The notes beneath the pieces were generated by a model. That model ran no database searches and was not told where the DNA came from. It saw only the letters and a program-made list of their open reading frames with translations. A program made the translations under genes and the position numbers. From NCBI GenBank assembly GCA_016186395.1, contig JACPLU010000003.1, positions 148,022-212,021 on the forward strand: 64,000 nt of DNA, read 5' to 3'. The DNA comes from Parcubacteria group bacterium (lineage in GTDB: Bacteria > Patescibacteriota > Minisyncoccia > 2-02-FULL-40-12). This document shows positions 6,235 to 59,255 of the stretch, one piece after another; the stretch's first letter is position 1, and every line of letters starts with the position of its first letter.

Positions 6235-7389
6235 TTAAATTTTAGATTCGATAAAATCTAAAATTTGCTTTTTAAATCTTTCTTCTGAAAACTTTTCTGC
6301 ATGTTTTTTTAGCACAAGCGGGCTGTAGTAGCCTGTTTTTATTTTTTCATAGATTCTTCTGGCCCCATCCGCCAAAACTATTGGATTGGGATCATCAAAA
6401 AATTCACCGGTTACTCCTTCAATTATACTTTCTTTTGCTCCTCCACGGCGTAATGCTAATATCGGTTTACCATGACTCATAGATTCAACAGGCGTTATGC
6501 CAAAATCTTCTTCTTGGGGCATAACAAATGCGATTGAGTTTTGATACAAGGTTTGTAATTCTTGGTCATTTACAAAACCGGTAAAAAAGATATTTTTTGC
6601 ATCCAATCTTTTAGTCAAGCTTTTTAAAGAAGTTTTTTCTGGTCCCCGGCCAACAATAATCAACGGCCATTGAAGTTTGGCAAATGCTCGTATAGCAATA
6701 TCAATATTTTTATGTTTAAAAAGCTGGGAAACAATGAGAAAATAATCGGAAGAAACCCTTGAATCTTGAACCTTAAATCTTGGATCACTTTGGTCATGAT
6801 TCATGTTCCATGTTTCATGGTTTATGTTTACCGGAGGATAAATTACAGTGGTTTCTTGCCGGTAGTATTTCCTAATCCTTTGAGCGACATTTTTGGAGTT
6901 AGCTATAAAATAGTCAACCCTTGCGGAGGCAGCCTTATCCCAAATTCTAGCAAAGTGTTGGAACAAAGTTACGCCGACATATTTTAGTGGTCCTCTTTTT
7001 TTAAACTCTTGGTTGTATTCTGATGACCAATCCCAGAGCCAACGGGTTGGACTGTGGCAATAACAAATATGGCGCGTATGGGGTTTTAAAATAACTCCTT
7101 TGCTAAATGCGATGTTAGAAGAAATGACTAAATCATATGAATCAAATCTGAAAGCTTCGGCGGCCAAGGGCATTAAAAATGGTAAGTAAGGGTAGATTTT
7201 TAAAATAAATGGTATTTTTTGAAGAATTGAGGGAACTATTTTTGCATTAGGCAAATATTTTTTAGTGAATTCTTTCGAATAAACCAGGGTATATATGGGT
7301 GCTTCGGGGAAAATTTTATGTAAGGCAATGATAACGCGCTCGGCGCCGCCAAGATTTAAAAGCCAGTCATGTATTAGTGCTACTTTCAA
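6235..7389 (-). CDS. Glycosyltransferase family 1 (GT4-like), carrying an in-frame CATG-element insertion; apparent TTG start
   Basis: MKVALIHDWLLNLGGAERV is a GT4 N-terminus. The segment HETWNMNHDQSDPRFKVQDSR parallels the insert in the neighbouring GT2 gene. Confidence 0.8.
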   Translation of the reverse strand: MKVALIHDWLLNLGGAERVIIALHKIFPEAPIYTLVYSKEFTKKYLPNAKIVPSILQKIPFILKIYPYLPFLMPLAAEAFRFDSYDLVISSNIAFSKGVILKPHTRHICYCHSPTRWLWDWSSEYNQEFKKRGPLKYVGVTLFQHFARIWDKAASARVDYFIANSKNVAQRIRKYYRQETTVIYPPVNINHETWNMNHDQSDPRFKVQDSRVSSDYFLIVSQLFKHKNIDIAIRAFAKLQWPLIIVGRGPEKTSLKSLTKRLDAKNIFFTGFVNDQELQTLYQNSIAFVMPQEEDFGITPVESMSHGKPILALRRGGAKESIIEGVTGEFFDDPNPIVLADGARRIYEKIKTGYYSPLVLKKHAEKFSEERFKKQILDFIESKI

Positions 7390-7473
7390 AACTCAAAATT
7401 TAAAAGTTGGAAGTCAAAATTTTTATTTTTGACTTGAATTTTTGAATTTTACTTTTTGCCTTTTGATTTAATT

Positions 7474-8481: not shown

Positions 8482-8849
8482 GTAGGAAAGTTAAAATTTA
8501 AAATGCAAAATTCAAAATTTAAAACTTGGAATTTACATAGTAAATTTTATCCGTACTTTTGCTTTTTACTTTTTGCCGCCTTTGGTCCAGCCTCGCCTCT
8601 CGCTTACGGCGGGGCTAGTCTTAGACGGCCGGCGGGAGTTTTAATTTATCAATCTAGCAGTTTATTATAAACCTCTCAAGTCCAGCACCACTTTTTTGAA
8701 AAAAGTGGTGCTGGGCAAGCCCCGCACCCCCGCCTGCCGGACGGGCAGGGAGTCCAGCACTGGTTTTCTGTACCCCCATACCTTTTGTTTTACAAAATGT
8801 GTGGGACTGTTCTGGATCTGGTGACGGGGACAAACAAACTAGTTTGGTA

Positions 8850-37137: not shown

Positions 37138-38001
37138 TTATTGGGTTTTAATAAAAAATCTGGTTTTTTGTTTAACAAGTTCTTTAACGGCTCTTATTGC
37201 TGATGCGAGATATTTATAGGGCGTGGTTTCCTCCGGTTTTTGATGCAATGCTTCTTCTAAGCTTTCTTTGTAAGCAACCCTTAATTCTGTATTAAAATGT
37301 ATGTTCGATATTCCGTTATTAATGGAGTTTATTATATCTTGATCTTTCAGTCCTGACGCACCATGAAGAACTAAAAATACATCCGGAATAGTTAAAGATA
37401 TTTGTTGTAGTCGGTTTATATCTAGTTTTTCTTCTTGGTCTGTAACAATACCGTGAATGTTACCAAAAACGATAGCTAATCTGTCAACACCGGTTTTTTC
37501 TACGAATACTTTAGCTTCTTCGGGTTTGGTAAAATCTTCGGGTGTTATTTCTATTTTTTGTTGTACTTGGGAGGACCCTCTTAAATATCCGAGTTCCCCT
37601 TCAATAGAAACATCGGGATTTTTATTTTTAGCATACTCCAGAACTTTTTGGGTCAATTTAATGTTTTCCTCAAATTCAAGGGTTGAAGCATCAATAATAA
37701 TAGAATCATAGCCTTCATCTATGGCTGTTTTGCATTTTTCAAAACTTTTGAAGTGATCGGCATTTAGAAAAACCGGAAAATTATAATCTTCTCTGATAGC
37801 TCTTACCAGAGCTACAGCTTCTTTTAAGCCAAGGAAACTTGCTTCACCTTCAGATGTACCGACCATAACAGCTTTTGCTCCAGCCTCTTTTGATCCTTCA
37901 ACTATAGCCCTTAAAACGTCTGCAGTTGCAAAGTTAAAATGTCCAATTGCTTCTTGTTTTTCTTTTGTCTGTTGAAGATAATTATTAAGATTATTTTTCA
38001 T
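37138..38001 (-). CDS. fba: Class II fructose/tagatose-bisphosphate aldolase
   Basis: GHFNF...AVMVGTSEGE...LNADHFKS...IIDAS are class II aldolase zinc-site motifs. Confidence 0.8.
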   Translation of the reverse strand: MKNNLNNYLQQTKEKQEAIGHFNFATADVLRAIVEGSKEAGAKAVMVGTSEGEASFLGLKEAVALVRAIREDYNFPVFLNADHFKSFEKCKTAIDEGYDSIIIDASTLEFEENIKLTQKVLEYAKNKNPDVSIEGELGYLRGSSQVQQKIEITPEDFTKPEEAKVFVEKTGVDRLAIVFGNIHGIVTDQEEKLDINRLQQISLTIPDVFLVLHGASGLKDQDIINSINNGISNIHFNTELRVAYKESLEEALHQKPEETTPYKYLASAIRAVKELVKQKTRFFIKTQ

Positions 38002-38059
38002 GTTTTATGTTTTATGCCGTCTACGGTTCCAGTCTTAGCTTTGGTGGGCTCCGTATGTT

Positions 38060-45921: not shown

Positions 45922-45972
45922 ACATCACGATTCTTGAAACTTGTAACTTAAAACATATAAGAAAAAAAATTT

Positions 45973-46323
45973 ATGATCAAACAAAACTTTCATCAAAATC
46001 TCAGGGATAAAATAAATACTTATATTCATTTAGTGTACAAAGTAACTAAAGAATTTCCTCGTGAGGAAACATACGGAGTGACGTCCCAACTAAGGAGGTC
46101 TGCACTTTCGGTTATGTTAAACTATATCGAGGGATACGCAAGATTTAAAACCAAAGTTCATAAGAACTTTTTAGAGATTGCTTACGGCTCACTTCAGGAG
46201 TCTAAATATATTCTTGAATTTTCGCTCGAAGAAGAATTTATGAAAAAAGATAAATATATAAAATTAGCCCACTTAGCAGATGAAATCGGAGTTATGTTGT
46301 GGGGAATTATTACTAAATTATGA
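45973..46323 (+). CDS. Four-helix-bundle protein
   Basis: YKVTKEFPREETYGVTSQLRRSALSVMLNYIEGYAR is characteristic of the family named after 23S rRNA intervening-sequence proteins. Confidence 0.7.
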   Translation: MIKQNFHQNLRDKINTYIHLVYKVTKEFPREETYGVTSQLRRSALSVMLNYIEGYARFKTKVHKNFLEIAYGSLQESKYILEFSLEEEFMKKDKYIKLAHLADEIGVMLWGIITKL

Positions 46324-46353
46324 TCATGTTTTATGATCTAAGTTTCAAGTTCC

Positions 46354-46692
46354 ATGTTACAAGGCTTTAAAGTCCCAAAAAATAACGGAAAATATTATTG
46401 GACTAATCACATAGTTCAGAAAATGGTCTATTATAAAATTTCACCCTCAAGGGTGAAACGTATTATCAGAGCACCAGATAGAGTTGAAGAAAGTATTGTT
46501 CCTGGACTTGTGGCGGCAATGAAAAAGTTTTCTAAGTCTGCCAAAGAAGAAATTTGGGCGATTTATCAAGTAGACCATAAAAAATTAAAACTTATATCAG
46601 CGTGGCGTTATCCAGGGAAAAGTTCAGAAAGAAATCCAATTCCACAGGAGATTTTAAGAGAAATAAAATTAGTCATAAATCTTGGAACTTGA
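46354..46692 (+). CDS. Hypothetical protein (112 aa); its start codon is supplied by a CATG-rich element
   Basis: ORF immediately preceded by catgttttatgatctaagtttcaagttccATG. Confidence 0.3.
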   Translation: MLQGFKVPKNNGKYYWTNHIVQKMVYYKISPSRVKRIIRAPDRVEESIVPGLVAAMKKFSKSAKEEIWAIYQVDHKKLKLISAWRYPGKSSERNPIPQEILREIKLVINLGT

Positions 46693-46760
46693 ATTTTAAA
46701 ACTCATCTCTGACCTGATCCTGACTTTCGACTTGCGATGTCGAAAGATCTTCGCACCAAT

Positions 46761-47372
46761 CTATAACTGTATATCTTTAACTTTTAAATACATTTCTTCC
46801 GCTTTACTCCAGTCAAAATTATGCCAGAAATCCTCAATATATTTTTTTCTATCAGAGCCGTAGTCCATAAAGTAAGCGTGTTCATAAACATCTAAAACAA
46901 TAATTGGAAGACATCCCCATACCCCGCCTTGATTGTGAGCATCGCCGTTGTAATGCCTTAAAGCGCCTATTTTGCTATCCCATGCTAATACTGACCAACC
47001 TCGAGAGGCCATAGCGCATTCTGAAAACCACTTGATTCCGTTTTCAACTGACCCCCATTTTTCTATCATAGCTTTTGACAACTCAGGTGCTTCTTCAGTA
47101 GCTCCTTTTCCACCCAAAACGTCAAAATACCATTCATGTAAATAAACGCCGTTAATAGCAAAGGTTTCTGCATCTTTTAAAGCTCTTAGTTCGCTATAAG
47201 TAGCATTACCCTCGGCTTTATTAGCCGCTCTCAATGCTTTAAGTTTTTCTAGTATCTCATTGCTTTTATTTACATAACCGACATAAAGCTTATCATGGTG
47301 GATTTGAACTGTTTTATCGGAAATTCCAGTTAATGGTTTTGAAAATGGAAGGGGTTTGGGTGAGTAAGGCAT
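46761..47372 (-). CDS. sod: Fe/Mn superoxide dismutase
   Basis: IHHDKLYVGYV...WEHAYFMDYGSDRKKYIEDFWHNFDW matches SodA/B. The start was placed at MPYS; the longer ORF-track start lies inside a CATG-rich leader element. Confidence 0.85.
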   Translation of the reverse strand: MPYSPKPLPFSKPLTGISDKTVQIHHDKLYVGYVNKSNEILEKLKALRAANKAEGNATYSELRALKDAETFAINGVYLHEWYFDVLGGKGATEEAPELSKAMIEKWGSVENGIKWFSECAMASRGWSVLAWDSKIGALRHYNGDAHNQGGVWGCLPIIVLDVYEHAYFMDYGSDRKKYIEDFWHNFDWSKAEEMYLKVKDIQL

Positions 47373-47592
47373 GAAGCATGGAACATAAAACATGAAACGT
47401 GGATCATAAAAATTCAGGTTTCAAGTTATAAGATCCAAGATTTAAGATTTAGGTCTCAAGTTACAAGATTCAAGAATTTATATTTGTATTTTTTCATTTT
47501 AAAGTTTAGTCTAAGTATAGCAGAAATAAGATTAATTCATAAGTTCTTTAAAATTGCAGTAGATTCGATAAACTCACTACAAGGAGGAACTG

Positions 47593-48459
47593 ATGAAAAC
47601 AAAGTTGAAATTTTTAGTTTGTATTGTTTTATTGGCTAGCTTAAGTCAACTATCTTTTTCCAGACAAATTGAACAAAAACAAATTTTGAACGATGCCATT
47701 TATCATTATTTTAACTCGGAGTCGGAGATTGCTATTGGCGAGGTTGATGCTTTACTAAAGATATCGCCAAATGATTTGTATTATCTTGATCTTAGAGCCG
47801 CGATAGCAAATGATTTGACGCTTAGGAGAACCAAGGGGGCGAATAAAGAAGAAAAACTAAAATTAGAAAATACTTATCGGTCATATTTGGACGAAGCAAT
47901 TTTAATAGGTGAGGAGCAAATAAAAACCCCGAGCGGTAAACAAAAGGACAATTGCTATGGACTTTTTAATCTGTCGTCCCTTTATGCCAGAAAGGCCAAT
48001 TTTTTGCATGATGCTGGTAAGGACTCTGAAGCCGTTGACGCAATGATTCAATCTATAAAATTTTCAAGGGAGTGTCTTCGGTTGAATCCAGAATTTCAGT
48101 TGCCCAATGGAATTTTAGGTATAGCTCAATATGAGCTTGGTGACATTTGGGGGCCTTTCAGATTTTTTGGTGGGTTTATATTTAAATATGTCAGAAGATT
48201 ATCGCGTGAGGTAAAACCAGACAAAAATGAAGGTTTGAAGAATCTTTTCTTGTCTGTTGAGTATCAGGGTAACGATTTTAGATTAAATGAGGCAAGGTGG
48301 GTTCTTGCCGAATATTTATTCAAAGAAAAAAGATATCTTCAGGCTTACACAACCGTTAAACTATTATCAGAGTGTTATCCTAAAAACTTAGATATAAAAG
48401 AGTTGTTATTTAAATGTGAGGCTAAATTATTCCTGGCAGTTGCAAGTTATGAAAACTAA
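47593..48459 (+). CDS. Hypothetical secreted protein (288 aa)
   Basis: Signal peptide plus an SD-like AAGGAGG upstream. Confidence 0.4.
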   Translation: MKTKLKFLVCIVLLASLSQLSFSRQIEQKQILNDAIYHYFNSESEIAIGEVDALLKISPNDLYYLDLRAAIANDLTLRRTKGANKEEKLKLENTYRSYLDEAILIGEEQIKTPSGKQKDNCYGLFNLSSLYARKANFLHDAGKDSEAVDAMIQSIKFSRECLRLNPEFQLPNGILGIAQYELGDIWGPFRFFGGFIFKYVRRLSREVKPDKNEGLKNLFLSVEYQGNDFRLNEARWVLAEYLFKEKRYLQAYTTVKLLSECYPKNLDIKELLFKCEAKLFLAVASYEN

Positions 48460-48719
48460 TAAAAGACAGCTTATTTAAAAGCCCAGCAATTATTACTGGG
48501 TTTTAGTTTGCTTAATTCTTATGTTAAATACAGCAAATCCTGTTCCTATAGAGGTTGAATAAAAAACTAAAAGTCCAATTGTAACCAAACCCCAGAATGG
48601 TCCAAAGATATCGGGACGAATTATTTTCATAGTTTGGTCAATAATACCGTTTACACCGATGACAACCAAAAGAATGGAAAATGAAAATTTAGCAGTTTGC
48701 TTGATAAATAGTTTCATAG

Positions 48720-49478
48720 TTATTGCCTCCTTCTAAAATTTGAATAGATATATTCTTCTTTTTTGTTTTCTTCTCTAACATTAAACAAAAACAATACTTT
48801 AAAGCGAAAATGATATTGGGCAGATACTCTTTTTAGCATTAGAATTTTATCTATCTCTTGAAATTCAACTTCAATCGTCATTGTGAAAAATTTAACTTGA
48901 TAACCTGTTCCGCTAATCTCGACTTCTCTACTAAGTTTTGCAGCAATTTTTATTGGCAATAAATCTTTTTGTCGTAGAATAACTATGCCTGTCATATTAT
49001 TTAAAACTACATCTCGACCTTCACTTACTGGCGGATTTTTAATTGGTTTAAAGCTTAATACTAAAAACCTCTCACCATTTTCATAAAATTCTTTTTCAAC
49101 ATTGAAGTCATAACGAGTATCAGAGAACATTTTATCGTCAACCGCGAATCTTGGTTTGGCCAATATCCATTGCGGTTTGGGATTTAACCTTCCGTCTCTT
49201 TCCAATAAATAGTGAAACTCTTTACCGTTTTCATGTTTTACAAGATATCTAAGAATTTCTCTTTTCTTTAAATCAAAATCACCTTTTAATTGGTCATTTA
49301 TTTTAATTTCTTCATGTTCATATTGAGTCCATTTTTTAACCGCTTCTTCTATTTTTTCACTCAATAACCTGCCAATAACTTTTTCTTGAAATACCGGTGG
49401 CGACTTTCCGTGAAAATTACATAGGTTATAAAAGAACAAAATTAAGATGGATAAAACCTTAAGGTGTTTTATACGCAT
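48720..49478 (-). CDS. Hypothetical secreted protein (252 aa)
   Basis: ORF with a signal peptide. Confidence 0.35.
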   Translation of the reverse strand: MRIKHLKVLSILILFFYNLCNFHGKSPPVFQEKVIGRLLSEKIEEAVKKWTQYEHEEIKINDQLKGDFDLKKREILRYLVKHENGKEFHYLLERDGRLNPKPQWILAKPRFAVDDKMFSDTRYDFNVEKEFYENGERFLVLSFKPIKNPPVSEGRDVVLNNMTGIVILRQKDLLPIKIAAKLSREVEISGTGYQVKFFTMTIEVEFQEIDKILMLKRVSAQYHFRFKVLFLFNVREENKKEEYIYSNFRRRQ

Positions 49479-49635
49479 CTAATCCTCCCTAAAACAAATT
49501 TGTTCGGACGAACATACGCCCTGGGCGTATGTTTTAGCCCTAACTACGATGGATTAAATAAGTAAAATGGTATAAAGAACTTACGTGTCTGTCAACACAA
49601 ACAAAAACTCCGTTTAAACGGGGTTTTTGTTTTAA

Positions 49636-52341
49636 TCAGTTCCTGATTGTTTCTTTAACTTGAACCTTAAATTCCTTATCGAAGTCAAGATATAAAATAG
49701 AGCCTTTCTCGGGTTCTTTGCCTAAAATTATTTCTGAAATTCTATTTTCTACGTTTTTTTGTATTACTCTTCTTAATTCTCTTGCTCCAAAATGAGGATC
49801 GTATCCGTCTTTTGCTAACTGATCTACTGCTTTTCTGCTGACTTCCAATTCTAAACCGCCGCTTTTTAATTTTCGGCGCAATTTGTCTAATTGTAAACTA
49901 ACTATTAATCGAATCTCATCTTCGCCCAAAGCTTTAAAAACAATAATTTCGTCAATACGATTTAGAAATTCTGGCCGAAATATGGATTTCAAGTTATTAA
50001 TCAAAGTGCTTTTCATACTTTCATAACTTACCCTATCTTCTTCTGGTTTATCAGCTTCTCGATAAATAATATCTGATCCGGCATTTGATGTAGCAATGAT
50101 AATTGTGTTAGTAAAATCTATCACTCTGCCCTGCCCGTCTGTTAATCGTCCATCTTCTAACACTTGAAGTAATGAGTTAAATACATCTGGATGGGCTTTT
50201 TCGATTTCGTCTAAAAGTATGATGGAATGAGGTCTGCGCCTGACAGCTTCTGTTAGTTGACCGCCTTCTTCAAAACCCACATATCCTGGTGGCGCACCAA
50301 TTAGACGAGAAACATTGTGTTTTTCCATATATTCGGACATATCAAGACGAACTATTGAACCCTCGTTGCTAAACATTATTTGAGCCAATGTACGGGTTAG
50401 TTCAGTCTTGCCAACTCCAGTAGGTCCAAGAAATAAAAATGAAGCAATAGGACGATTAATATCTCCCATTCCTGCGCGGCCGCGTCTTATTGCGTTAGCG
50501 ACTGCCTTTACCGCTTCTTCTTGGCCAATGAGTCTTTCGTGAATTCTTTCCTCCAGCTTTAGAAGTTTTTCTTTTTCTTCTTGGGTAAGTTCAGTTATTG
50601 GTATTCCAGTAAGTTTTGAAATAATTTCAGCTATGTTGGCTGTAGTAACTTCAGGAGTTAATTTAGCTTTCTTAGCTTCCCATTCTTCAAATAATTTATC
50701 CCTTTGAATTTTTAATTCAGTAATTTCTTTTTGTAGTTGAGCAACCCTTTTTGTTTGTTTTGAACGTTTTGAAGCATCCAATTCTTTTTCTAAATTTTTA
50801 ACCTGTGACTCTAAATTTTTAATTTCTTCAGGTTCATTGGTAAACTGAATTCTTACTCTTGCCGCTGCTTGGTCAATTAAGTCTATGGCTTTATCCGGTA
50901 AGAAACGATTAGAAATATAACGATGCGATAATTCTGCTGCTGCGATTAATGCCTCGTCAGAAATTTTAACCCTATGGTGGGATTCATATCTGTCTCTTAG
51001 GCCTCGCAAAATTTCAGCAGTTTCTTTAACTGACGGTTCTCCTACAAATACCGGCTGAAAACGGCGTTCCAATGCCGCATCTTTTTCAATATATTTTTGA
51101 TACTCTTTGAGTGTAGTCGCTCCAACCACATGAAGCTCGCCTCTTGCAAGAGCCGGTTTAAACATATTAGCCGCATCCATGACTGTTCCTTCGGCGCGGC
51201 CAGCCCCAACAAGAAGATGGATTTCGTCAATAAAGACGACTAATTTATCAGAATTTTCTCTTATCTCATCGACTATTCCTTTTAATCTTTCTTCAAATTG
51301 GCCTCTATATTGTGTGCCGGCAAGAATACCAGACAAATCAAGTTCAACAACTCGTTTACCTTGAAGTGGTTCTGGAACGTTTCCTGAAACAATTCTTTGG
51401 GCTAAACCTTCAACAATAGCCGTTTTACCAACACCAGGTTCACCAATTAATACAGGATTATTTTTAGTTCTACGGGCTAGAATTTCAATAATAGTTTCAA
51501 TTTCTTTTGCCCTGCCGATAACCGGATCAAGCTTGCCTTGGGCCGCTACTTTACTTAAATCTCTAGAAAATTGATCCAAATTTGGCGTGTTCATCATTGG
51601 TACAAAACCTTCTTTTGAACCGCGTCCAACTGTTTTCACGATTGCTTTTTGTAAAACCTCTTGACTAAGTTTTAGTCTTTTAAGTATTTGAGCGGCTAAA
51701 CCCTCTCCTTCTTCCATTAAAGCGAGAAGTAAGTGTTCTGGGCCAACATAGGTGTGTCTTAGATTTTGGGCAATTGGCAAAGCAATATCTAAAGCTCTTT
51801 TTAATCTCGGTGAATACTCAACTTGATAGGGCTCTTCATAACCTGTTTTAATTGATGATTTAACATCCATCTCCAGATTTTTAATATTTACTTTGGCCTG
51901 TTCTAATATTTTTTGTACGTTTGGTTCGTCAAGAAGTGCCAAAAGCAGGTGCTCTGTATCAACTTGATCATTTCTAAACCGACCAGCCAATCCAACCGCA
52001 CGTTGCAATGCCATTTGTCCTGATTCTGAAATATAGCTTTCAGTATCAACCCGTTCTTGAGTTTGCGGTTCTTGATTATTAAACATTTCCCCAAATAAAT
52101 CACCAAGTAAATCATCACCAAATATTCCACCTAATCCAAAGGGTGATTTATGGCTTTTATTTTTATCACTTTTTCTTGATTGATTAGGACCTGGTAAATT
52201 AAAGCTTATGCCTTTTGAAGCACAATTATCACAAAGATTCAGAGTTGAAGCTCTGCCGTTTATAATTCTTGTGATTTTTCTTGTTGCTTGATTTTTTTTG
52301 CAGTTATCGCATAGGGACATGGAACATGGAACACGAAGCAT
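49636..52341 (-). CDS. ClpC/ClpB-family double-ring AAA+ chaperone with an N-terminal ClpX-type C4 zinc finger
   Basis: There are two Clp N-domain repeats. NBD1 has GEPGVGKTAIVEGLA and NBD2 has GPTGVGKTELT and GYVGFEEGG. The N-terminus LCDNCKKNQATRKITRIINGRASTLNLCDNCASKG is ClpX-ZBD-like. Confidence 0.8.
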   Translation of the reverse strand: MLRVPCSMSLCDNCKKNQATRKITRIINGRASTLNLCDNCASKGISFNLPGPNQSRKSDKNKSHKSPFGLGGIFGDDLLGDLFGEMFNNQEPQTQERVDTESYISESGQMALQRAVGLAGRFRNDQVDTEHLLLALLDEPNVQKILEQAKVNIKNLEMDVKSSIKTGYEEPYQVEYSPRLKRALDIALPIAQNLRHTYVGPEHLLLALMEEGEGLAAQILKRLKLSQEVLQKAIVKTVGRGSKEGFVPMMNTPNLDQFSRDLSKVAAQGKLDPVIGRAKEIETIIEILARRTKNNPVLIGEPGVGKTAIVEGLAQRIVSGNVPEPLQGKRVVELDLSGILAGTQYRGQFEERLKGIVDEIRENSDKLVVFIDEIHLLVGAGRAEGTVMDAANMFKPALARGELHVVGATTLKEYQKYIEKDAALERRFQPVFVGEPSVKETAEILRGLRDRYESHHRVKISDEALIAAAELSHRYISNRFLPDKAIDLIDQAAARVRIQFTNEPEEIKNLESQVKNLEKELDASKRSKQTKRVAQLQKEITELKIQRDKLFEEWEAKKAKLTPEVTTANIAEIISKLTGIPITELTQEEKEKLLKLEERIHERLIGQEEAVKAVANAIRRGRAGMGDINRPIASFLFLGPTGVGKTELTRTLAQIMFSNEGSIVRLDMSEYMEKHNVSRLIGAPPGYVGFEEGGQLTEAVRRRPHSIILLDEIEKAHPDVFNSLLQVLEDGRLTDGQGRVIDFTNTIIIATSNAGSDIIYREADKPEEDRVSYESMKSTLINNLKSIFRPEFLNRIDEIIVFKALGEDEIRLIVSLQLDKLRRKLKSGGLELEVSRKAVDQLAKDGYDPHFGARELRRVIQKNVENRISEIILGKEPEKGSILYLDFDKEFKVQVKETIRN

Positions 52342-52393
52342 GAAACATAAAGTTGGATTTTAGGACTCACGATTCATGTTTTTACAAAAGTGT

Positions 52394-52422
52394 ATTATAG
52401 CAGAATTTCAAAAAAAAATCAA
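52394..52422 (-). promoter_or_regulatory. Sigma70-like promoter (TTGATT -17- TATAAT) for the Clp gene
   Basis: The minus strand reads TTGATTtttttttgaaattctgcTATAAT about 45 nt upstream of the CATG-rich leader and start codon. Confidence 0.5.
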
Positions 52423-52443
52423 AAAGCGGCCGAAAGACCGTTT

Positions 52444-53409
52444 TTAATATTTAACTGTAGTTATATATTTCTCATTTAAATCTTCATATTCACTTTTGCC
52501 CGTGATTAAATCGTCGTACTTTTCCATAAGTAATCTTGTAATCGGGCCAGGCTGATCGTCTCCTACTTTAAGAGTTGGTTTGGAAGTATTAAATTCATAA
52601 TCTTCAAAAAACGATATTTTTGTAATCGGTGTTACTTTTGTAGAGGTGCCCGTTAGAAAAAGTTCCCCGGCCGATCTTAGGTCAGAATCAGTCATTATTC
52701 CGGAATCATTTAATTTGATCCCGTTTTTTTTAGCCAGATTAATAATCGAATCTCTTGTAACCCCGGCAATTATCGGGAGACTTAATGATGGAGTGTAAAG
52801 TTGGCCGTTCCACACACCAAAAATATTCGCAAACGCAGATTCAAGAACTACGCCAGTGTGAGTTTTAAATAAAACAGTTGTAAAACCTTTTTGTATAGCA
52901 TTATTGTGAAGTATTGCTGGAACCGAATACTCGCCAGTAAGTTTTACCCTTCCAAAAACAGGATCTCTGGTATAGGGCACTATTGCTACTTTGGCAGGCA
53001 TTTTAAGAGGAATGTATTCTCGCATTTTATGAATACTTATTATAAGAGATGTTTGCTCATTTGAGTAATCGACAGCTTGCGGATGGCATGTAAAACAAAC
53101 TAAACGCATATCTATATATTGCGGACAAAGAAATTTATTGGCTTCCACAGTCTGAACAGCCATTCTTTTTATAGAATTAAAGGTTTCATTAGTTTTTAGA
53201 CAGCAAGTTCTCGCATTTTTGAGTAAGCGCTCAATATGTTGATCCAGCCTAAAAATTAAAGCTTTATTAGTATTCGCGTCGTAGAAAGCGTAAACGGCAT
53301 CAAATATACTAACACCTCTTAAAAATGAACTATTCAATAAGTGGTTTGTGTTTACTAACGGAGTTAAAAAATCATTTGAACAGATTATATGGCCAGTGTC
53401 CTTGTCCAT
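52444..53409 (-). CDS. Class IV aminotransferase (branched-chain / D-amino-acid aminotransferase family)
   Basis: SIFDAVYAFYD...RLDQHIERLLKNA and the C-terminal E...LTGTSTKVTPI match the fold-type IV PLP enzyme pattern. Confidence 0.65.
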   Translation of the reverse strand: MDKDTGHIICSNDFLTPLVNTNHLLNSSFLRGVSIFDAVYAFYDANTNKALIFRLDQHIERLLKNARTCCLKTNETFNSIKRMAVQTVEANKFLCPQYIDMRLVCFTCHPQAVDYSNEQTSLIISIHKMREYIPLKMPAKVAIVPYTRDPVFGRVKLTGEYSVPAILHNNAIQKGFTTVLFKTHTGVVLESAFANIFGVWNGQLYTPSLSLPIIAGVTRDSIINLAKKNGIKLNDSGIMTDSDLRSAGELFLTGTSTKVTPITKISFFEDYEFNTSKPTLKVGDDQPGPITRLLMEKYDDLITGKSEYEDLNEKYITTVKY

Positions 53410-53512
53410 TCCATCTTCCTGTATTGAAAAAGAGCTTAATTTAGACTAAATCAAATAGAAAATAATTTCAATAATAAATGGAGGTCGAAAAGTCAGCATT
53501 ATCCCAGAGAAT

Positions 53513-54190
53513 CTAGAGTATATCGTGGATATCCATTCCGGCCCACGCGCAAAATTCACAAGCCTGGTGTTTTGGAGGCAATGGTCCTTGTAAAAGCATA
53601 GACGCTTCATAAAATAGCTTTTTAGCGTCTTCTTTTGAGGTTTCAATTCTTTTAGGAACAATATCAAATTTAATAGTACTGTTATCTAAAATATCGGTTG
53701 GAGCAAAAAATACTAAATATCCAATATCTTTAGTTGGATAACCGTTTTCATCCAAAAGCCAAGTATATAAATTAAGCTGGTTTTGATGAAATATATGTGA
53801 GTCTTCTTTAATACTGGCTTTGGATTTGTAGTCTAATGGTATGAAAAAGTTATCATCTGTTATCAAGCAGTCATCCAGGGCGCTTACTAGTTGAACGTTT
53901 AATTCTTTATCAACATAGCTTGGTCCTGTTTTCCAAAAACGCCATTTTTTTAGCAATTCAAAGTTGTCGAAAAGTTGACCCTCAACAAGGCCTTCAAGTT
54001 GGGGTGGAAGTTTTCCCTCTGCTCGGAAACGATCAAAATATTCTTTTACCAGCAAATCCATCTTTGTATAAAGAGGCATTGGTATTCCTTGGGGCCTTTT
54101 AATATGTTCTTTTACTTGTAAATAAAAACAGCGTGGGCAGTCTTTGTATAGGGATAATGATGTAGCAGAAAGTGTAAGCAGACTTTTCAT
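53513..54190 (-). CDS. PD-(D/E)xK family nuclease (Cas4/RecB-like) with N- and C-terminal cysteine pairs
   Basis: DCPRCF near the N-terminus, the core IPLDYKSK (D...D/ExK), and the C-terminus CEFCAW. Confidence 0.5.
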   Translation of the reverse strand: MKSLLTLSATSLSLYKDCPRCFYLQVKEHIKRPQGIPMPLYTKMDLLVKEYFDRFRAEGKLPPQLEGLVEGQLFDNFELLKKWRFWKTGPSYVDKELNVQLVSALDDCLITDDNFFIPLDYKSKASIKEDSHIFHQNQLNLYTWLLDENGYPTKDIGYLVFFAPTDILDNSTIKFDIVPKRIETSKEDAKKLFYEASMLLQGPLPPKHQACEFCAWAGMDIHDIL

Positions 54191-54957
54191 TTTTTAATCA
54201 AGGATATTAAGAAAAAAACAATACTGGTTAAAACAACAATTGGGCCCGGAGGTAAGGAATACTGAAATGCGATCCAGACTCCCAGCCCAGTACTTAATGT
54301 TCCTATAACCATACTCCAAAAGCCGAAAGAACGAAAATTAGGACTGATATTTTTAGAAGTTGCCGCGGGAATTATAACCAGGGCACCCATTAAAAGACTA
54401 CCAACAACTTTTATTCCAAGCGCTACGATTATCGAAACAAGCATTAGAAAAATAAGATTAATCTTTGAAATATTAATGCCAGAGGCTTTGGCAAATTCTT
54501 CGGAAACGGTTCCTAAAATTAACTGTTTTGCAATGCGTCTCATTATAATCGTTACAATAACAGCAAGCACAATAGCCAAAATTGCATCTATTGGTTTAGT
54601 TTTTGAAATATCGCCAAACAAGGCTTCAAAAAGTTCTGGTTCCGGAGTAATTAAAATACCGATGGCTAAACTTGCAGTAAACATTATGCCAACCAGAGTT
54701 TCTACGGCTAGTTTAGTTTTTTGTTCCAATCGCCAAATAATTAGTGCCGCAACAAATAAAAATACAAACGCACCGATAAAAGGATTTATGTTAAGCAAAA
54801 AAGCAATACCAATACCAGGTAGAGCCACATGGGTTAAGGCATCACCTACTAGAGCCATTCTTTTTAGGATCATAAATGAACCTAAATATCCGGCTGCGGT
54901 GCCAGTAAATAAACCCACTATAAGACTTAGTTGAAAAGTTGAATCAAAATAACTCAT
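54187..54957 (-). CDS. Metal (Zn/Mn) ABC transporter permease, ABC-3 family (ZnuB-like)
   Basis: Eight transmembrane helices and the ABC-3 conserved region. Confidence 0.8.
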   Translation of the reverse strand: MSYFDSTFQLSLIVGLFTGTAAGYLGSFMILKRMALVGDALTHVALPGIGIAFLLNINPFIGAFVFLFVAALIIWRLEQKTKLAVETLVGIMFTASLAIGILITPEPELFEALFGDISKTKPIDAILAIVLAVIVTIIMRRIAKQLILGTVSEEFAKASGINISKINLIFLMLVSIIVALGIKVVGSLLMGALVIIPAATSKNISPNFRSFGFWSMVIGTLSTGLGVWIAFQYSLPPGPIVVLTSIVFFLISLIKK

Positions 54958-54964
54958 TTAACAA

Positions 54965-55114
54965 GGTGAATAATACTCTTTCTCTTTCTTCGCAAACCCC
55001 AACGTGGTTTGCTCAGGGATTGAGCCCTTCGCTCTTCCACCATCTGATTTAAAACCAGATGGTGAAAACCATGCCCACTACGGGCTCAAAACCCGTTCAA
55101 AAGTATTATTCACC
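54965..55114 (+). mobile_element. MITE-like element copy 5, inserted between znuC-like and znuB-like genes of the same operon
   Basis: Perfect TIRs GGTGAATAATACTCTT / AAAAGTATTATTCACC. The central hairpin is caccatctgatttaaaaccagatggtg. Confidence 0.8.
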
Positions 55115-55119
55115 AAACT

Positions 55120-55881
55120 TTAGAACTCACTATGTTTATGTAAATAAACCGAGGTGTCTTTTCCATACAGTTGGCTTAAGGACTCTTTGGTCAAAGCTTC
55201 TTCAGGAATTCCATGGCAAAGCATAGTTTTATTTAAACACATTACTTCATCTGTATAGTGATAAACAACATGTAAATCGTGTGAAATAAGAAGAATTGTT
55301 AGCTCCCTTTCTTTTTGGAGTTTATGAATCAAAGAATAAATTGATTCTTCCCCGCCAATATCAACACCAGCTGCTGGTTCGTCAAGTAATAATACAGTGG
55401 GCTCGTCCATAATTGTCCAGGCAACCAAAACTTTTTGGAATTCTCCACCGGATAAAATACCCAACCTCTTTTTTAAAAGATGATTTTCAAGGTGGTACTC
55501 ATCATGCCACCTGGGCTCAACTGATTTTAAAGCTCTAAATATGGATTCTTTATCTTTATTTTTAGATTTAAATTCTAAAAACTCACCAACCGTTAACGGA
55601 AGCTCTCTTTCAACGGTAAGTTTTTGAGGGACATATCCAATTTTTGCTTCTTTGGCCCAATGGACACTGCCCTTATGCGGTATTAAGCCAAGTAAAGCTC
55701 TAAATAAAACTGTTTTTCCGGCTCCATTTGGCCCAACAATTCCTAGAGTTTTCCCTTGTTCCAATTCAAACGACAAATCCCCAATCACCTCCTGATCGTT
55801 AAAGCTTACAGATAAATTTTGAACTTTTAGGATTAAGGGCATATTTTTAAAAAAAGCAGTCAATGTATAAAAGCTCCACAA
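55120..55881 (-). CDS. Metal ABC transporter ATP-binding protein (ZnuC-like)
   Basis: Walker A GPNGAGKT, the signature LSGGEFQKV and Walker B LLLDEP. Confidence 0.8.
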   Translation of the reverse strand: MWSFYTLTAFFKNMPLILKVQNLSVSFNDQEVIGDLSFELEQGKTLGIVGPNGAGKTVLFRALLGLIPHKGSVHWAKEAKIGYVPQKLTVERELPLTVGEFLEFKSKNKDKESIFRALKSVEPRWHDEYHLENHLLKKRLGILSGGEFQKVLVAWTIMDEPTVLLLDEPAAGVDIGGEESIYSLIHKLQKERELTILLISHDLHVVYHYTDEVMCLNKTMLCHGIPEEALTKESLSQLYGKDTSVYLHKHSEF

Positions 55882-55896
55882 GACTAAGACCGAATA

Positions 55897-58530
55897 CTAT
55901 TTCGGTAACTCTTCAACAGAAATTGTAAATTCTTCACCACGCTGGATTTGTTTATCTAAAATTTTTCTAGCTATTATTACTTCAACTGTATTTTGGATGA
56001 CTCTTTGCATTGGCCGGGCGCCGAATTGCGGATCAAAACCAATTTCCGAAATATAATCTATCAGTTTTTCGTTAGGAGCAAATAAATAACTTTGTTCTTT
56101 AAGTCGTTCGCTAAGTTTTTTAAGAAGAATTTTTGCGACTTCTTTAATCTGTTCTCTGGTTAATGGATGAAAAACTATTATCTCGTCAAAACGATTCAAT
56201 AGTTCAGGAGTAAATAAATGATTTTTTAATATATAATCCAGAATAAGTTCTTTTTCTTGAGCAGTATCCGTATTTTGCGTAACTAGTTGACGAATAAATT
56301 CAGAACCGGCATTTGATGTGGCAATGATAATATTTTGTTTTAGAGAAACGGTTTTACCAAAGGCGTCAGTCATTCTGGCTTCGTCAAAAACCGGTAAGAA
56401 AAGATTTAAAATATTCGGATGGGCCTTTTCAAATTCATCTAATAGCACAACTGAAAAAGGTGACTCTCTTAATTTATTTACAAACTGACCAGGTTCTTGA
56501 GTTCGCAGAGAACCTATAAATCTGTCCATTGACTCTGACTCTTGAAATTCAGACATATCAAAACGAATCATTTTGTCTTCACTGCCGAAATAAACCTTAG
56601 CTAAAATTTTGGCAGTAAGGGTTTTCCCTACCCCTGTTGGCCCCACAAATAAAAATACCCCGGCTGGTTTATCGCGCTTCATCAGGCCCACCCGTAGTCT
56701 TAACATTGTTTCAGCCACTCGTTTTACAGCCAGTTCTTGATTAACAATATCTTCATGCATTAATTTTTCCAGGTTATCTATTTTTTCTTTTTCTGAACCG
56801 GAAACCTCCCCTAAAGGAACATGTGTTTTTTGGGTTATGGTTTTATTTACATCCTCGGCTAGAACAAAACTTTTACCTTGTTTAGCGACACTAGATGCAA
56901 CTTCCGTTAAAAGATCAATGGCTTTTTCGGGAAACGGAACATTGGGAATAAAGAAGTCTGCCTTGTCCACAATATTTTTAAGAGCTTGGTGGGTAACAAA
57001 AACACCTTGCTGACGCTCAATGGCCGGTAAAACTGTTTGTAAAATTTGTGTGGTTTGAACTTTATTTGGCTCTTGTATATCTATCTTTTCAAATAAACGC
57101 ATTAGATCTACCCGAGGCTCAATATATTTGTGAAAATTTTGAGAGTCTGTCAGAGCAATTACCTGAAAACGACTTGAGCCTAAATACGGTTTTAGAACTT
57201 CTGAAATATCAATTTTACCAACACCTTGAGCCGCGCCAACAAAATTATGAATGTCATCAATAATTAAAATTATATTGCCGGCATGTTCAGCGTCCTTTAA
57301 TACTCTGATGAGAGTTGCCTCCATTTCCTGTGTAGTCGGGCTTGAGGAAGTCAATAAAGCCATATTTAATTCCAAAACTCTTTTGTACTTCAAGGCCGGC
57401 AGGGCTTTGCCCTTGGCGACTAGGTCTGTAAAACCATAAACTATGGTATGTTTTCCAATACCCGGTTCGCCAACAAGCAATACGTTATTATCTCCGCTTC
57501 GAGATAAAGTTATTTCAATTTGATTAATTATCTCCTGGCGGCTGATGAGTCTTACTTCTTTTTTTCCTGTTTCAAAATATTTTGAAACGTCAGTTGCAAA
57601 TCTATCAAGTAAAGGAGTATAACCATATACCCAATCAACTCCAATTGGGGAAGAACGAAGTAGGTTTTCTAGTTCCCAAAATCTTCTGTGTTTTTTTAGG
57701 TATCCAAGGTTTGCCTCAAACCAAAGTCCCAGATCTACTAAGTCATCTCTGTCAATGTTCATTTCAAGGAACATTTTTCTTAAGACCTCGTTAGTATCAA
57801 AAAGGGCAATTAGCAAATCGGTTACTAAAATTCTTTCACTTTTATGTTCTTCTCTTAGTTTTTGGCATATTTCAATACACTTTTGAGCCTGTTCATCTAG
57901 CTGCCAATTTACATCTGAAGACTTTAATAACGTACTTGTTTGACTAAATCCAAATGCTTCTAAAACTTGTTTTTCAAGAGTTGGAGGATAAATTTCAAGT
58001 CTTTGCCATAATGCTCTTGCCGCAGAATGTCCTACAAGCGCGGCAAAAAGAGCATTTGTTGAAATTGATAAGTTTTTTTCCGCGCTCATTAGAGCCGCTT
58101 TATAAAACACCTGGGCTGTATCAAAATCTAAATATTCCAGAGGTTCAGAATCGCCCTTAAGCTTAGGTTCTTTTAAATACAAAGCAATAAAAATTTCAAA
58201 GAATGCTAATGAAAAACCTAAAGGAATAAATATATATGCCAAACCTAAAAATAAATCTTCAAAATTTAATAATTTAGTTAAATCAATTTTATTTAATATC
58301 GGTAAGTAATAAGCGCTGTTAGGGTTAATAATTACTTCTAGCCCGTGGCTAATTCCCCAAATAGCAAGATTACCAAACCCGATAATAAGAAACAAAACTC
58401 TCCATATTTTTAAAAGTTTCGTAGGGAATTGATTTAAGAATTTTACCGATGAAATAATTTTAGGAGTCATTATAATAAAGAAAAACCCTGGGCTATTGAA
58501 AAAACTAATACAAGCGGCCAAAGAACCCAA
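55897..58530 (-). CDS. Membrane-anchored Clp-like double AAA+ ATPase with a degenerate NBD1
   Basis: Three to four N-terminal transmembrane helices. NBD1 has GEPGIGKHT and IIDDIH. NBD2 is canonical (GPTGVGKTLT, LLDEFEKAHP). Confidence 0.7.
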   Translation of the reverse strand: MGSLAACISFFNSPGFFFIIMTPKIISSVKFLNQFPTKLLKIWRVLFLIIGFGNLAIWGISHGLEVIINPNSAYYLPILNKIDLTKLLNFEDLFLGLAYIFIPLGFSLAFFEIFIALYLKEPKLKGDSEPLEYLDFDTAQVFYKAALMSAEKNLSISTNALFAALVGHSAARALWQRLEIYPPTLEKQVLEAFGFSQTSTLLKSSDVNWQLDEQAQKCIEICQKLREEHKSERILVTDLLIALFDTNEVLRKMFLEMNIDRDDLVDLGLWFEANLGYLKKHRRFWELENLLRSSPIGVDWVYGYTPLLDRFATDVSKYFETGKKEVRLISRQEIINQIEITLSRSGDNNVLLVGEPGIGKHTIVYGFTDLVAKGKALPALKYKRVLELNMALLTSSSPTTQEMEATLIRVLKDAEHAGNIILIIDDIHNFVGAAQGVGKIDISEVLKPYLGSSRFQVIALTDSQNFHKYIEPRVDLMRLFEKIDIQEPNKVQTTQILQTVLPAIERQQGVFVTHQALKNIVDKADFFIPNVPFPEKAIDLLTEVASSVAKQGKSFVLAEDVNKTITQKTHVPLGEVSGSEKEKIDNLEKLMHEDIVNQELAVKRVAETMLRLRVGLMKRDKPAGVFLFVGPTGVGKTLTAKILAKVYFGSEDKMIRFDMSEFQESESMDRFIGSLRTQEPGQFVNKLRESPFSVVLLDEFEKAHPNILNLFLPVFDEARMTDAFGKTVSLKQNIIIATSNAGSEFIRQLVTQNTDTAQEKELILDYILKNHLFTPELLNRFDEIIVFHPLTREQIKEVAKILLKKLSERLKEQSYLFAPNEKLIDYISEIGFDPQFGARPMQRVIQNTVEVIIARKILDKQIQRGEEFTISVEELPK

Positions 58531-58865
58531 ATAATTAATAAGGCAAAAAAGGTGGCGCTTAAAATTAGTTCGTAAATAAGACCGGCAATAACAATAGCTA
58601 AACGGATGACTGCGGCAACTATTCTAATATAAAAATCCACTACTCCATTTATTATTTTAGATCCAAAAGTTTGTTCTTCAGGCAGTTGTGAGGGCATAAC
58701 GCGATGCCATGCAGAAAATAAGGTTGCTAAGTGTCTTGTGATTAAAAAGCGATGCCAAGTGCTAATCAAATAATTATTTAAAACCCTCAAGATGCCGGAT
58801 GGGGCTACCATATAATGCCAATAAAAGTATTGGATGAAAGCCATGAATCTTGAAACATGAATCAC
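58470..58865 (-). CDS. Hypothetical membrane protein (131 aa; start uncertain)
   Basis: Hydrophobic ORF. Its 5' end lies in a CATG-rich element. Confidence 0.3.
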   Translation of the reverse strand: MIHVSRFMAFIQYFYWHYMVAPSGILRVLNNYLISTWHRFLITRHLATLFSAWHRVMPSQLPEEQTFGSKIINGVVDFYIRIVAAVIRLAIVIAGLIYELILSATFFALLIIWVLWPLVLVFSIAQGFSLL

Positions 58866-59255
58866 AAAACATAAAAAAACCTTAAGTTTCGGATTCGTGT
58901 CATTCTTAAACTAGGTTTACTATATTTATTATATCAAAATTTGGAGGTTTATAGAAGTCCACGGGCTTACCTTGCTTCGCCGAGGCTACGCAAGACGAGC
59001 GCCCGTGGTACTCCAAGGAGTACAGGATTGATTTTGAAAAGATATTGATGCTTTTCAAAATCAATCCTGACTTATATAATTTCCCTACGCTCGCTTGCGC
59101 TCGCTTCGGGGCTGTCATTCATCCCCGAGCTGACGCTCGGGGTTTTCTGACAGGAATTATAAAGTAGTCTATGTCCACACGCAAAACAATGTTTATTTGA
59201 CATAAAACTATTCTTATGTTATATAAATTACATTGCAATTTACCAACTTTAAGGA

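Follow-up and report, generated by a model that had tools for sequence, protein, structure and literature searches.

The window analysed here is a 64 kb stretch of DNA (G+C content 35.7%) from a metagenome-assembled genome (MAG) of a Parcubacteria bacterium of the candidate phyla radiation (CPR), and all window counts given below refer to these 64 kb. It carries a repeat element made of degenerate heptamer arrays, which lies against the start codons of sod, of a ClpC-like gene (clpC) and of a gene for a 124-aa membrane protein, encloses a gene for a 23S rRNA intervening-sequence protein (IVP) and recurs in frame within glycosyltransferase genes (Table 1). An independent Logan assembly agrees with the window letter for letter over 8.6 kb that contain repeats, and the repeats are therefore not assembly artefacts. 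Protein-family annotation of the window covered approximately 44-61 kb, and the evidence consisted throughout of DNA sequence comparison and predicted folds. The window gave no match to Rfam at the gathering threshold, rRNA included, and a tRNA-gene search of it found none; a gathering-threshold Rfam search of 18 CPR loci returned two tRNAs only. The repeat element itself matched no Rfam family.

Table 1. Repeat elements and associated features of the window, in order of position; z-scores are given for the predicted leader fold and for the duplex between the two arms.
Feature	Position	Strand	Basis or remark	Leader fold z	Arm duplex z
Single array CATGTTT CAAGTTT AATGTTT CAAGTTT TATGTTT in Wzy_C O-antigen-ligase-like gene	2645..2693	-			
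Complete two-arm element, in frame in GT2 glycosyltransferase gene (5258-6232)	5668..5760	-			-3.1
Complete two-arm element, in frame in GT4 glycosyltransferase gene (6235-7389)	6758..6833	-			-2.1
Weak three-unit array CATAAAA CATAAAA CATGAAA at class II aldolase gene start	37991..38016	-	membership doubtful		
5' arm of ORF-bearing element, CACGATT CTTGAAA CTTGTAA CTTAAAA CATATAA	45926..45960	+	sequence, duplex		
IVP gene, four-helix-bundle 23S rRNA intervening-sequence protein, bAvd-like	45973..46323	+	profile and structure matches		
3' arm of ORF-bearing element, TCATG TTTTATG ATCTAAG TTTCAAG TTCCATG	46324..46356	+	sequence, duplex		
112-aa ORF between inverted arrays	46354..46692	+	starts at last ATG of 3' arm (46354)		
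Third array, CATAAAT CTTGGAA CTTGAAT TTTAAAA	46672..46700	+	3' end of 112-aa ORF		
sod leader element, ORF-less hairpin	47370..47480	-	sequence; Tandem Repeats Finder periods 7, 21, 35	-2.3	-2.2
clpC leader element, ORF-less hairpin	52318..52378	-	sequence, fold	-3.3 (0/200 shuffles as stable)	-2.7
Sigma-70-like promoter TTGATT-17-(TG)TATAAT	52394..52422	-	10/12 consensus matches, TG extension		
Membrane-protein (124-aa ORF) leader element, ORF-less hairpin	58842..58900	-	sequence, fold, duplex	-1.3	-2.4

Every copy, when set in register, was a degenerate heptamer array, and nine or ten window copies followed a common heptamer grammar. The sequence CATGRAACATGRAACATGRA, allowing up to three mismatches, was matched 20 times at eight window sites, against an expectation of 0.00 from 100 shuffles. 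Self-identity was raised at period 7 and not at periods 5, 6, 8 or 9, and Tandem Repeats Finder (TRF) returned period-7, -14, -21 and -35 arrays at each site. The 3' arm, which adjoins the start codon on the strand of the downstream gene, reads approximately [A/T]T[C/T]C[A/T][A/T]G, with TTYCATG as the commonest unit. The upstream 5' arm reads approximately C[A/T]TG[A/G]A[A/T] (C[A/T]TGRAW) and is roughly the reverse complement of the (TTYCATG)n arm. Read in this register, each element is a pair of inverted heptamer arrays that should pair as an imperfect hairpin, and the fold predictions imply that such a hairpin may form in RNA or in single-stranded DNA. All five two-arm window copies without an open reading frame (ORF) gave arm-arm duplexes with z between -2.1 and -3.1, and the predicted folds of the sod, clpC and membrane-protein leaders left the start codon unsequestered. 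Two forms were distinguished: a short ORF-less form of 60-110 bp, comprising the three leaders and the GT2 and GT4 in-frame inserts, and a long form with the IVP gene in the loop between the arms (45926-46356 in the window). The repeats are a family of heptamer-array palindromes in two forms, whose copies adjoin start codons, occupy intergenic positions or lie within genes in frame. The exact 12- and 11-mer modules AAATCTTGGATC and CTTGAATCTTG were common to the sod copy and the GT4-internal copy (6758-6786) beyond what periodicity provides; an earlier interpretation of this DNA, hereafter the sequence-only reading, had given the module to sod and clpC, and the clpC copy lacks it. Across the window copies, similarity extends to the heptamer grammar and to short 11-12-mers of this kind and not to a full-length consensus. 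A strand preference in folding was considered and not retained: of 27 well-paired elements, 19 gave the more stable duplex on the CATGRAA strand, where G·U oppositions take the place of A·C, and the difference was not significant (Wilcoxon p = 0.16).

The four CATG-rich strings from which the sequence-only reading started were all recovered at the coordinates given there, ending in ATGTTTTATGTTCCATGCTTCATG before CCT on the minus strand at sod, in ATGCTTCGTGTTCCATGTTCCATG before TCC at clpC, in TTTCAAGTTCCATG before TTA at the plus-strand ORF starting at 46354, and reading GTGATTCATGTTTCAAGATTCATG before GCT at the membrane-protein gene. The leader described there is real and non-random; it constitutes one arm of the element only, and the heptamer period, the inverted arm, the copies in coding sequences and the gene-enclosing copy had been overlooked. 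At sod, the 5' arm (47480-47412) consists of CTTGAAT, CTTGTAA, CTTAAAT, CTTGGAT and further units, and the 3' arm (47411-47370) reads TTTCATG TTTTATG TTCCATG CTTCATG, its last ATG (47372-47370) being the sod start codon. At clpC, the 5' arm is CATGAATCGTGAGTC (52378-52364) and the 3' arm (52352-52318) reads TTTCATG CTTCGTG TTCCATG TTCCATG, with the last ATG (52320-52318) as the clpC start codon. The corresponding arms of the membrane-protein element are ACACGAATCCGAAAC (58900-58886) and TTTTGTG ATTCATG TTTCAAG ATTCATG (58876-58842). The Pfam Sod_Fe_N alignment sets the N-terminus of sod at the last ATG of the array, the NCBI 894-aa ClpC model agrees at 100% identity with the ORF that opens at the last array ATG, and the ClpC proteins of relatives begin similarly (MLCDIC..). 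The overlap with start codons claimed earlier is borne out, and judging by the Pfam alignment for sod and the NCBI model for clpC, both genes have their true start codon in the final ATG of their arrays. The claim of multiple in-frame ATGs stood for one extra ATG 21 nt upstream in each of sod and clpC and failed for the remaining array ATGs, which are out of frame; only every third array ATG is in frame because the period is 7 nt.

The promoter that had been predicted upstream of clpC was recovered and has a TG extension in addition. It lies upstream of both arms and is directly preceded by a terminator-like hairpin (52440-52427); if this predicted promoter is in use, the whole element lies within the 5' untranslated region (UTR) and makes up most of it. 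The four array-led window genes start at the ATG of the last unit and none of them has a Shine-Dalgarno sequence, an AGGAG-type Shine-Dalgarno being found in approximately 14 of 63 window genes. A TATAAT-like box 6-7 nt before the ATG, again with no Shine-Dalgarno sequence, was seen at the gene starts 44017, 61845, 9060 and 16757, and sequence of this kind suggests that leaderless mRNAs may be common in this organism. The membrane-protein element is separated from the gene that comes next by a stretch (58936-59145) of relatively G+C-rich repeats, GTCCACGGGC to GCCCGTGG followed by CGCTCGCTTG twice, which closes with a strong terminator-like hairpin (59123-59142) and for which Rfam gave no match.

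In the long form, the arms bracket the IVP gene. The encoded protein matched PF05635 (E = 2.3e-26), NCBIfam TIGR02436, the structure PDB 2GSC (E = 2.3e-12) and, weakly, Avd. The arm at 45926-45960 paired with 46310-46365 at -24.7 kcal/mol (z = -4.9, with 0/300 shuffles as stable), and over two tests the window duplex across the IVP ORF ranged from -24.7 to -25.3 kcal/mol and from z = -4.0 to -4.9. The 112-aa ORF that follows gave a DUF4258-like (toxin-like) match that was sub-threshold (E = 0.07, below the curated cut-off), and it may be a second cargo type of these elements: the third array, at 46672-46700, is inverted relative to that at 46324-46356 and pairs with it at z = -4.7. In the interval from clpC to the PMT gene, the block of sod, the IVP gene and this second ORF differs from the syntenic relatives.

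The association of the IVP gene with the arrays extended beyond the window. Within loci selected by the repeat pattern, five of six IVP homologues had arrays on their immediate flanks, arranged as in the window. An unbiased test used five IVP homologues picked by protein similarity alone, irrespective of repeats; C[A/T]TGRAW arrays lay at the IVP start in all five, and complementary arrays just past the stop codon in four. The loci with an IVP gene inside such an element comprised L078, L096, L085, L013, L207, L213, L216 and L217. Stems across the IVP ORF had z from -3.8 to -6.6 at six loci (the window, L207, L213, L217, L078 and L096), and at L217 the 12-mer AAATCTTGGATC of the sod leader makes both arms, as a perfect inverted repeat. 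The IVP start codon lies in or beside the 5' arm, and the downstream gene likewise has its start codon in the 3' arm. CPR IVP cassettes were often located between type IV pilin (N_methyl) genes and a prepilin peptidase gene (L207, L216, L217-L226; L038, L041, L044), and there the heptamer arrays supply the coding sequence of the prepilin leader peptide, just ahead of the G|FTLIEL cleavage motif. Many IVP homologues were found on very short contigs (0.5-4 kb), which would fit IVP cassettes, or the surrounding repeats, breaking metagenome assemblies, as they may do.

Copies inside coding sequences keep the reading frame. The GT4 insert encodes HETWNMNHDQSDPRFKVQDSRVSS, in the linker between two Rossmann domains; this linker is variable, and most of the 40 best GT4 homologues were approximately 17-20 residues shorter at the insertion point in the alignment. 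The GT2 insert encodes a peptide that includes HGTWNMEHGEQNTNPESMIHDSRSKSQD and LKHGTWNMEHGEQNTNPESMIHDSRSKSQD. The array in the Wzy_C gene (TRF period 14, 95% matches) is read as the hydrophobic peptide SSLMFQVLCFVF; a search for its partner arm found none, and the membership of this array (2645-2693) in the family is less certain. Among the matches listed from other genomes, Pfam-confirmed in-frame arrays were present in TsaE, UvrD (a whole hairpin), the CCA-adding enzyme, MiaA, GltX, PrmC (two genomes), a Mur ligase, MetRS and a radical-SAM protein, and approximately 40% of the CPR arrays lay within ORFs. A search of 5.8 billion proteins with the peptide (HGTWNME)x6 returned 110 matches, nearly all of them 30-74-aa ORFs without Pfam domains, which are probably spurious gene calls over intergenic arrays; this search gave no measure of how frequent in-frame copies are. 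Two candidates were set aside. In the pth genes of L003 and L004 the period-7 signal was ordinary AT-rich coding sequence with no insert, judged against the E. coli Pth sequence, and the HETWNMD match in the DegT aminotransferases of L015 and L051 looks native in view of the DegT motif and was counted as chance.

An exact scan for CATGRAACATGRAACATGRA was run over one genome per species (185,579 species). It gave at least 119 loci, whereas rough arithmetic puts the chance expectation at 10-20, and by record title these comprised 39 from CPR, 32 from Bacteroidota, 27 others and 21 from unlabelled MAGs. The external arrays were picked by an exact pattern, a CATGRAA run of three perfect units; genes were called crudely as longest ORFs, and taxon labels were record titles. 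An array outside ORFs counted as near if an ORF of 60 aa or more began between -14 and +30 nt relative to its terminal TTYCATG unit. Among the matches listed, the 40 arrays of CPR and unlabelled MAGs had such an ORF near the TTYCATG end in 25 cases (11 exactly at the ATG) and on the opposite side and in the opposite orientation in 11 (one exact); the corresponding values for the 30 Bacteroidota arrays were five (none exact) and 11 (two exact). The bias of position and orientation toward gene starts in CPR genomes is real. Likewise among the matches listed, a complementary partner lay on one fixed side of 16 of 41 CPR arrays and on the other side of none of 41. The array-led genes elsewhere in CPR, identified by N-terminal sequence, included rpsT, rpmB, rplK, rplM, groEL, efp, dnaX, recR, a dTDP-glucose dehydratase gene and prepilin genes, and other arrays of the scan stood after genes or in the opposite orientation (all among the matches listed). 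The targets were functionally mixed and not specific to stress. Near-perfect CATGRAA arrays of about 15 and 23 units were seen in Proteus terrae (L053, 1439-1542) and in a Falkowbacteria genome (L077, 6542-6703), and, in contrast to the degenerate copies of the window, these could be repeats genuinely prone to slippage.

Orthologous sites were compared for absence and persistence of the element. Outside this species, ClpC identity reaches 70% at the most. The clpC leader was short and array-free in all three syntenic relatives (ClpC 68-69% identical), in which the order ABC-transporter, PD-(D/E)XK, clpC is kept; a class IV aminotransferase gene (52444-53409) lies between the PD-(D/E)XK gene and clpC in the window and is absent from these relatives (L003, L004 and L006). 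In another CPR genome (L028), an array occupies the groES-groEL spacer and was absent in the closest GroEL relatives found (84%, 78% and 78% amino-acid identity), some GroEL relatives bearing other small repeats in the same spacer. Among the latter, L130 (1-108) carries TTACTGA/TTACGAG/TTACGGA heptamers reminiscent of published TAACTGA repeats, and L140 (1380-1500) an unrelated G+C-rich repeat. Persistence was also observed: two genomes other than the Moranbacteria pair L012/L040 discussed below shared the position of an in-frame array in PrmC, one IVP locus had identical arrays in ten samples (L217-L226) with single-nucleotide polymorphisms (SNPs) in the nearby coding sequence, and a pair of genomes 95% identical differed in having seven (L099) and five (L122) units. 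Taken from these comparisons, the element appears to have been gained sporadically, lineage by lineage.

Three known systems resemble the element in different respects. The closest in anatomy is the intervening sequence (IVS) of 23S rRNA: its complementary borders form a stem, and an S23p ORF whose ribosome-binding site is poor occupies the loop; the IVS is known in Leptospira, Coxiella and Xanthomonas, is sporadic and lineage-specific, occurs in ORF-less and ORF-degraded versions and has been interpreted as parasitic (PMC4990558). The elements described here have the same complementary termini forming a long stem, the same optional PF05635/TIGR02436 ORF in the loop with a poor or absent Shine-Dalgarno sequence, ORF-less forms and a sporadic, lineage-specific spread. 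Unlike the rRNA IVSs, which occupy 23S helices 9, 25 and 45 or 16S rRNA, they occupy mRNA leaders, intergenic positions and, in frame, coding sequences, and their stems are made of degenerate heptamer arrays. Excision by RNase III, as in rRNA IVSs, would destroy the mRNA at copies inside coding sequences. We have not filed the elements as IVSs, given their location outside rRNA and the putative nature of any RNase III excision.

In genomic behaviour, the closest known system is the TAACTGA heptamer direct repeat of Beggiatoaceae, Cyanobacteria and Bacteroidetes (MacGregor 2015, PMC4679880). These repeats lie within a few nt upstream of start codons with no Shine-Dalgarno sequence, a minority are in ORFs, and the downstream genes, ribosomal-protein genes included, show no functional pattern (PMC4679880). 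The arrays described here share the tandem heptamers within a few nt of the start codon, the missing Shine-Dalgarno sequence, the downstream genes without functional pattern (ribosomal-protein genes among them), the presence of some copies in ORFs and the overlap in Bacteroidetes. They differ in their unit (TTYCATG / CWTGRAW), which is degenerate and not a near-perfect direct copy of TAACTGA, in their inverted pairs forming hairpins, of which one inverted case only was reported for TAACTGA, and in bracketing IVP genes, of which PMC4679880 makes no mention. For in-frame insertion, the closest system is the Rickettsia palindromic element, a short dispersed palindrome found between genes and in frame in unrelated housekeeping genes, where it is translated as an extra peptide (PMC10969869). 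[quoted passage not shown] Unlike Rickettsia palindromic elements, which align to a consensus of approximately 150 bp, the present copies share a repeat grammar only and have a strong bias for abutting start codons, and no transposase was found for them in the annotated 44-61 kb. The short tandemly repeated repetitive (STRR) heptamers of Cyanobacteria share the 7-nt tandem period, the intergenic preference and the patchy phylogeny with the present arrays and are mostly perfect direct arrays. The long heptanucleotide simple sequence repeats (SSRs) of Mrazek 2007, as relayed in PMC4679880, show these features as well, unlike the degenerate, inverted-paired and ORF-linked arrays at start codons reported here in being mostly perfect and direct. 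A literature search for the exact repeat, for CPR heptamer repeats and for IVP terms, most subscription journals being outside its scope, found no description of the element.

On balance we lean, by a small measure, towards a selfish palindromic element, IVS-like or MITE-like, that occurs with and without an ORF. Such an element would resemble, in its anatomy, a 23S rRNA IVS outside rRNA and behave as a MITE or Rickettsia palindromic element; it would be moved or copied as a unit, the short ORF-less form would be derived from, or dependent on, the IVP-bearing long form, and the bias to gene starts would reflect insertion preference combined with tolerance. The proposal of the sequence-only reading that a mobile cassette fuses to gene starts is close to this: a dispersed palindrome and the start bias in CPR were found, and the element may move as a unit. 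Several observations weigh against a selfish element. In the ORF-less window copies the two arms complement each other only modestly (z about -2 to -3), and the copies vary widely in sequence and in how many units they carry, as recently transposed MITEs seldom do. No transposase, integrase or other mobility gene was found in the annotated 44-61 kb (approximate limits), and four-helix-bundle IVP proteins are not known to have catalytic or mobility activity. The filled and empty orthologues are too diverged (ClpC approximately 69%, GroEL at most 84%) to set the element ends or a target-site duplication. Arrays also end exactly on start codons, those of ribosomal-protein genes included, for which function rather than tolerance is conceivable, and in a Moranbacteria pair (L012/L040) the element upstream of rpsT was approximately 92-97% identical while the rpsT coding sequence was approximately 81-85% identical.

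The last two observations would be accounted for by a 5'-UTR module, functional or exapted, that serves translation or the processing of RNA, an alternative that we consider distinctly less probable and yet the most serious one. The hairpin would be cut, for example by RNase III, or would be a binding site for S1 or for a cold-shock protein whose footprint is 7 nt, giving a short-leader or near-leaderless mRNA independent of Shine-Dalgarno sequences, with the AUG in the last heptamer. The 3' arm in CPR abuts or contains the start codon with fixed polarity, the array-led genes lack Shine-Dalgarno sequences and several window genes look leaderless, highly expressed genes (rpsT, rpmB, rplK, rplM, groEL, efp) are among those led by arrays, the rpsT element is conserved better than the adjoining coding sequence in the two Moranbacteria, the IVP start in or beside the 5' arm mirrors the downstream start in the 3' arm, and the stems of rRNA IVSs are known RNase III substrates (PMC4990558). 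Such a module is nevertheless hard to reconcile with the absence of the element at orthologous clpC and groEL loci, with copies inside coding sequences, after genes and in the opposite orientation, with the several out-of-frame AUGs in the leaders, which should compete with the true start, and with start codons left unsequestered in the predicted folds. A translational or RNA-processing role of the element is possible. A further reading is speculative and, in our estimate, slightly less probable still: heptamer-stemmed intervening sequences for mRNAs in CPR and Bacteroidota, with or without a gene for a pentameric four-helix-bundle IVP. The elements would be transcribed within host mRNAs and the stem cut in the manner of RNase III; cleavage would free a near-leaderless IVP message from the loop and leave the downstream message also near-leaderless, with its AUG in the last heptamer. 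The IVP would be the RNA-binding partner of the element itself, and in-frame read-through would add new loops to housekeeping proteins.

The remaining explanations fared worse. That the arrays are ordinary slipped-strand heptanucleotide SSRs, arising independently in place and perhaps serving as phase-variation switches, is improbable, even though heptanucleotide repeats are the most abundant class of long SSRs in many genomes (Mrazek 2007, as relayed in PMC4679880), the closely related L099 and L122 differ by two units and the Proteus and Falkowbacteria arrays are very long and perfect. The window arrays contain no long runs of identical adjacent units and, being degenerate, are poor slippage substrates; phase-variable contingency loci have perfect repeats with copy numbers varying among close strains, which was not the pattern of the window arrays. 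Slippage would also not predict the identity of the L217-L226 arrays next to coding sequence with SNPs, the same two-arm architecture and 11-12-mers at unrelated sites, whole hairpins in frame inside genes or arms that bracket IVP ORFs. A role as DNA-level sites, either arrays bound by nucleoid, uptake or recombination proteins or attC-like cassette sites, would draw on the IVP gene and the DUF4258-like ORF each being bracketed by inverted arrays, somewhat as in a cassette array, and on CATG being palindromic and present on both strands; we regard it as quite unlikely. The 7-bp spacing is out of step with the helical repeat of DNA, the arms lack the integron attC core motif (judged by eye only), and the link to start codons is better explained at the RNA level or by tolerance. 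Integron attC-like cassettes in particular were set aside, no integrase or recombinase having been found in the annotated 44-61 kb. Least credible of all is the translational-control leader of a stress or proteostasis regulon favoured by the sequence-only reading, which took its appeal from two of the four window leader copies preceding sod and clpC. The other copies precede the membrane-protein gene and the cassette ORF or sit within glycosyltransferase and Wzy genes, ribosomal-protein, pilin, dnaX, recR and other genes are array-led elsewhere in CPR, the arrays are missing from orthologous clpC and groEL leaders, and the second Clp/AAA+ gene of the window (55897-58530) is not among the array sites found. 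Cis-regulatory RNA leaders show conservation between orthologues, coherent targets and membership of an RNA family; here one conserved pair (L012/L040) was found and no Rfam family. On the likeliest reading, the element was gained sporadically, one lineage at a time, and is therefore not a stress-specific control signal.

Were the selfish-element reading true, it would join the PF05635 family of unknown function, start-abutting heptamer repeats and in-frame selfish DNA in essential genes, all three linked in small, streamlined CPR genomes, where repeats are presumed scarce. The start-abutting repeats would then concern phyla that make little use of Shine-Dalgarno sequences, and the elements would offer handles on the mobility of intervening sequences, on the binding target of the IVP and on translation without Shine-Dalgarno sequences. 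In practical terms, the arrays mislead gene callers into false N-terminal extensions and spurious 30-70-aa ORFs, and they may fragment assemblies, many IVP-bearing contigs being just 1-4 kb long.

Some further features of the window were recorded. A-rich period-7 arrays (AAAATTY, TCAAAAY) lie at 8487-8535 and 7386-7435, upstream of mreB and of the GT4 gene, and may represent another heptamer family or degraded arms. Arrays of GTTG units with a period of 7 or 14 (TAGTTGT TCGTTGA; GTTGACG) were found inside long ORFs at 29669-29702 and 39457-39522. The ClpC-like protein (49636-52320) and its CPR relatives share an N-terminal CxxC...CxxC motif (MSLCDNCKKN...LCDNC), which is zinc-ribbon-like.

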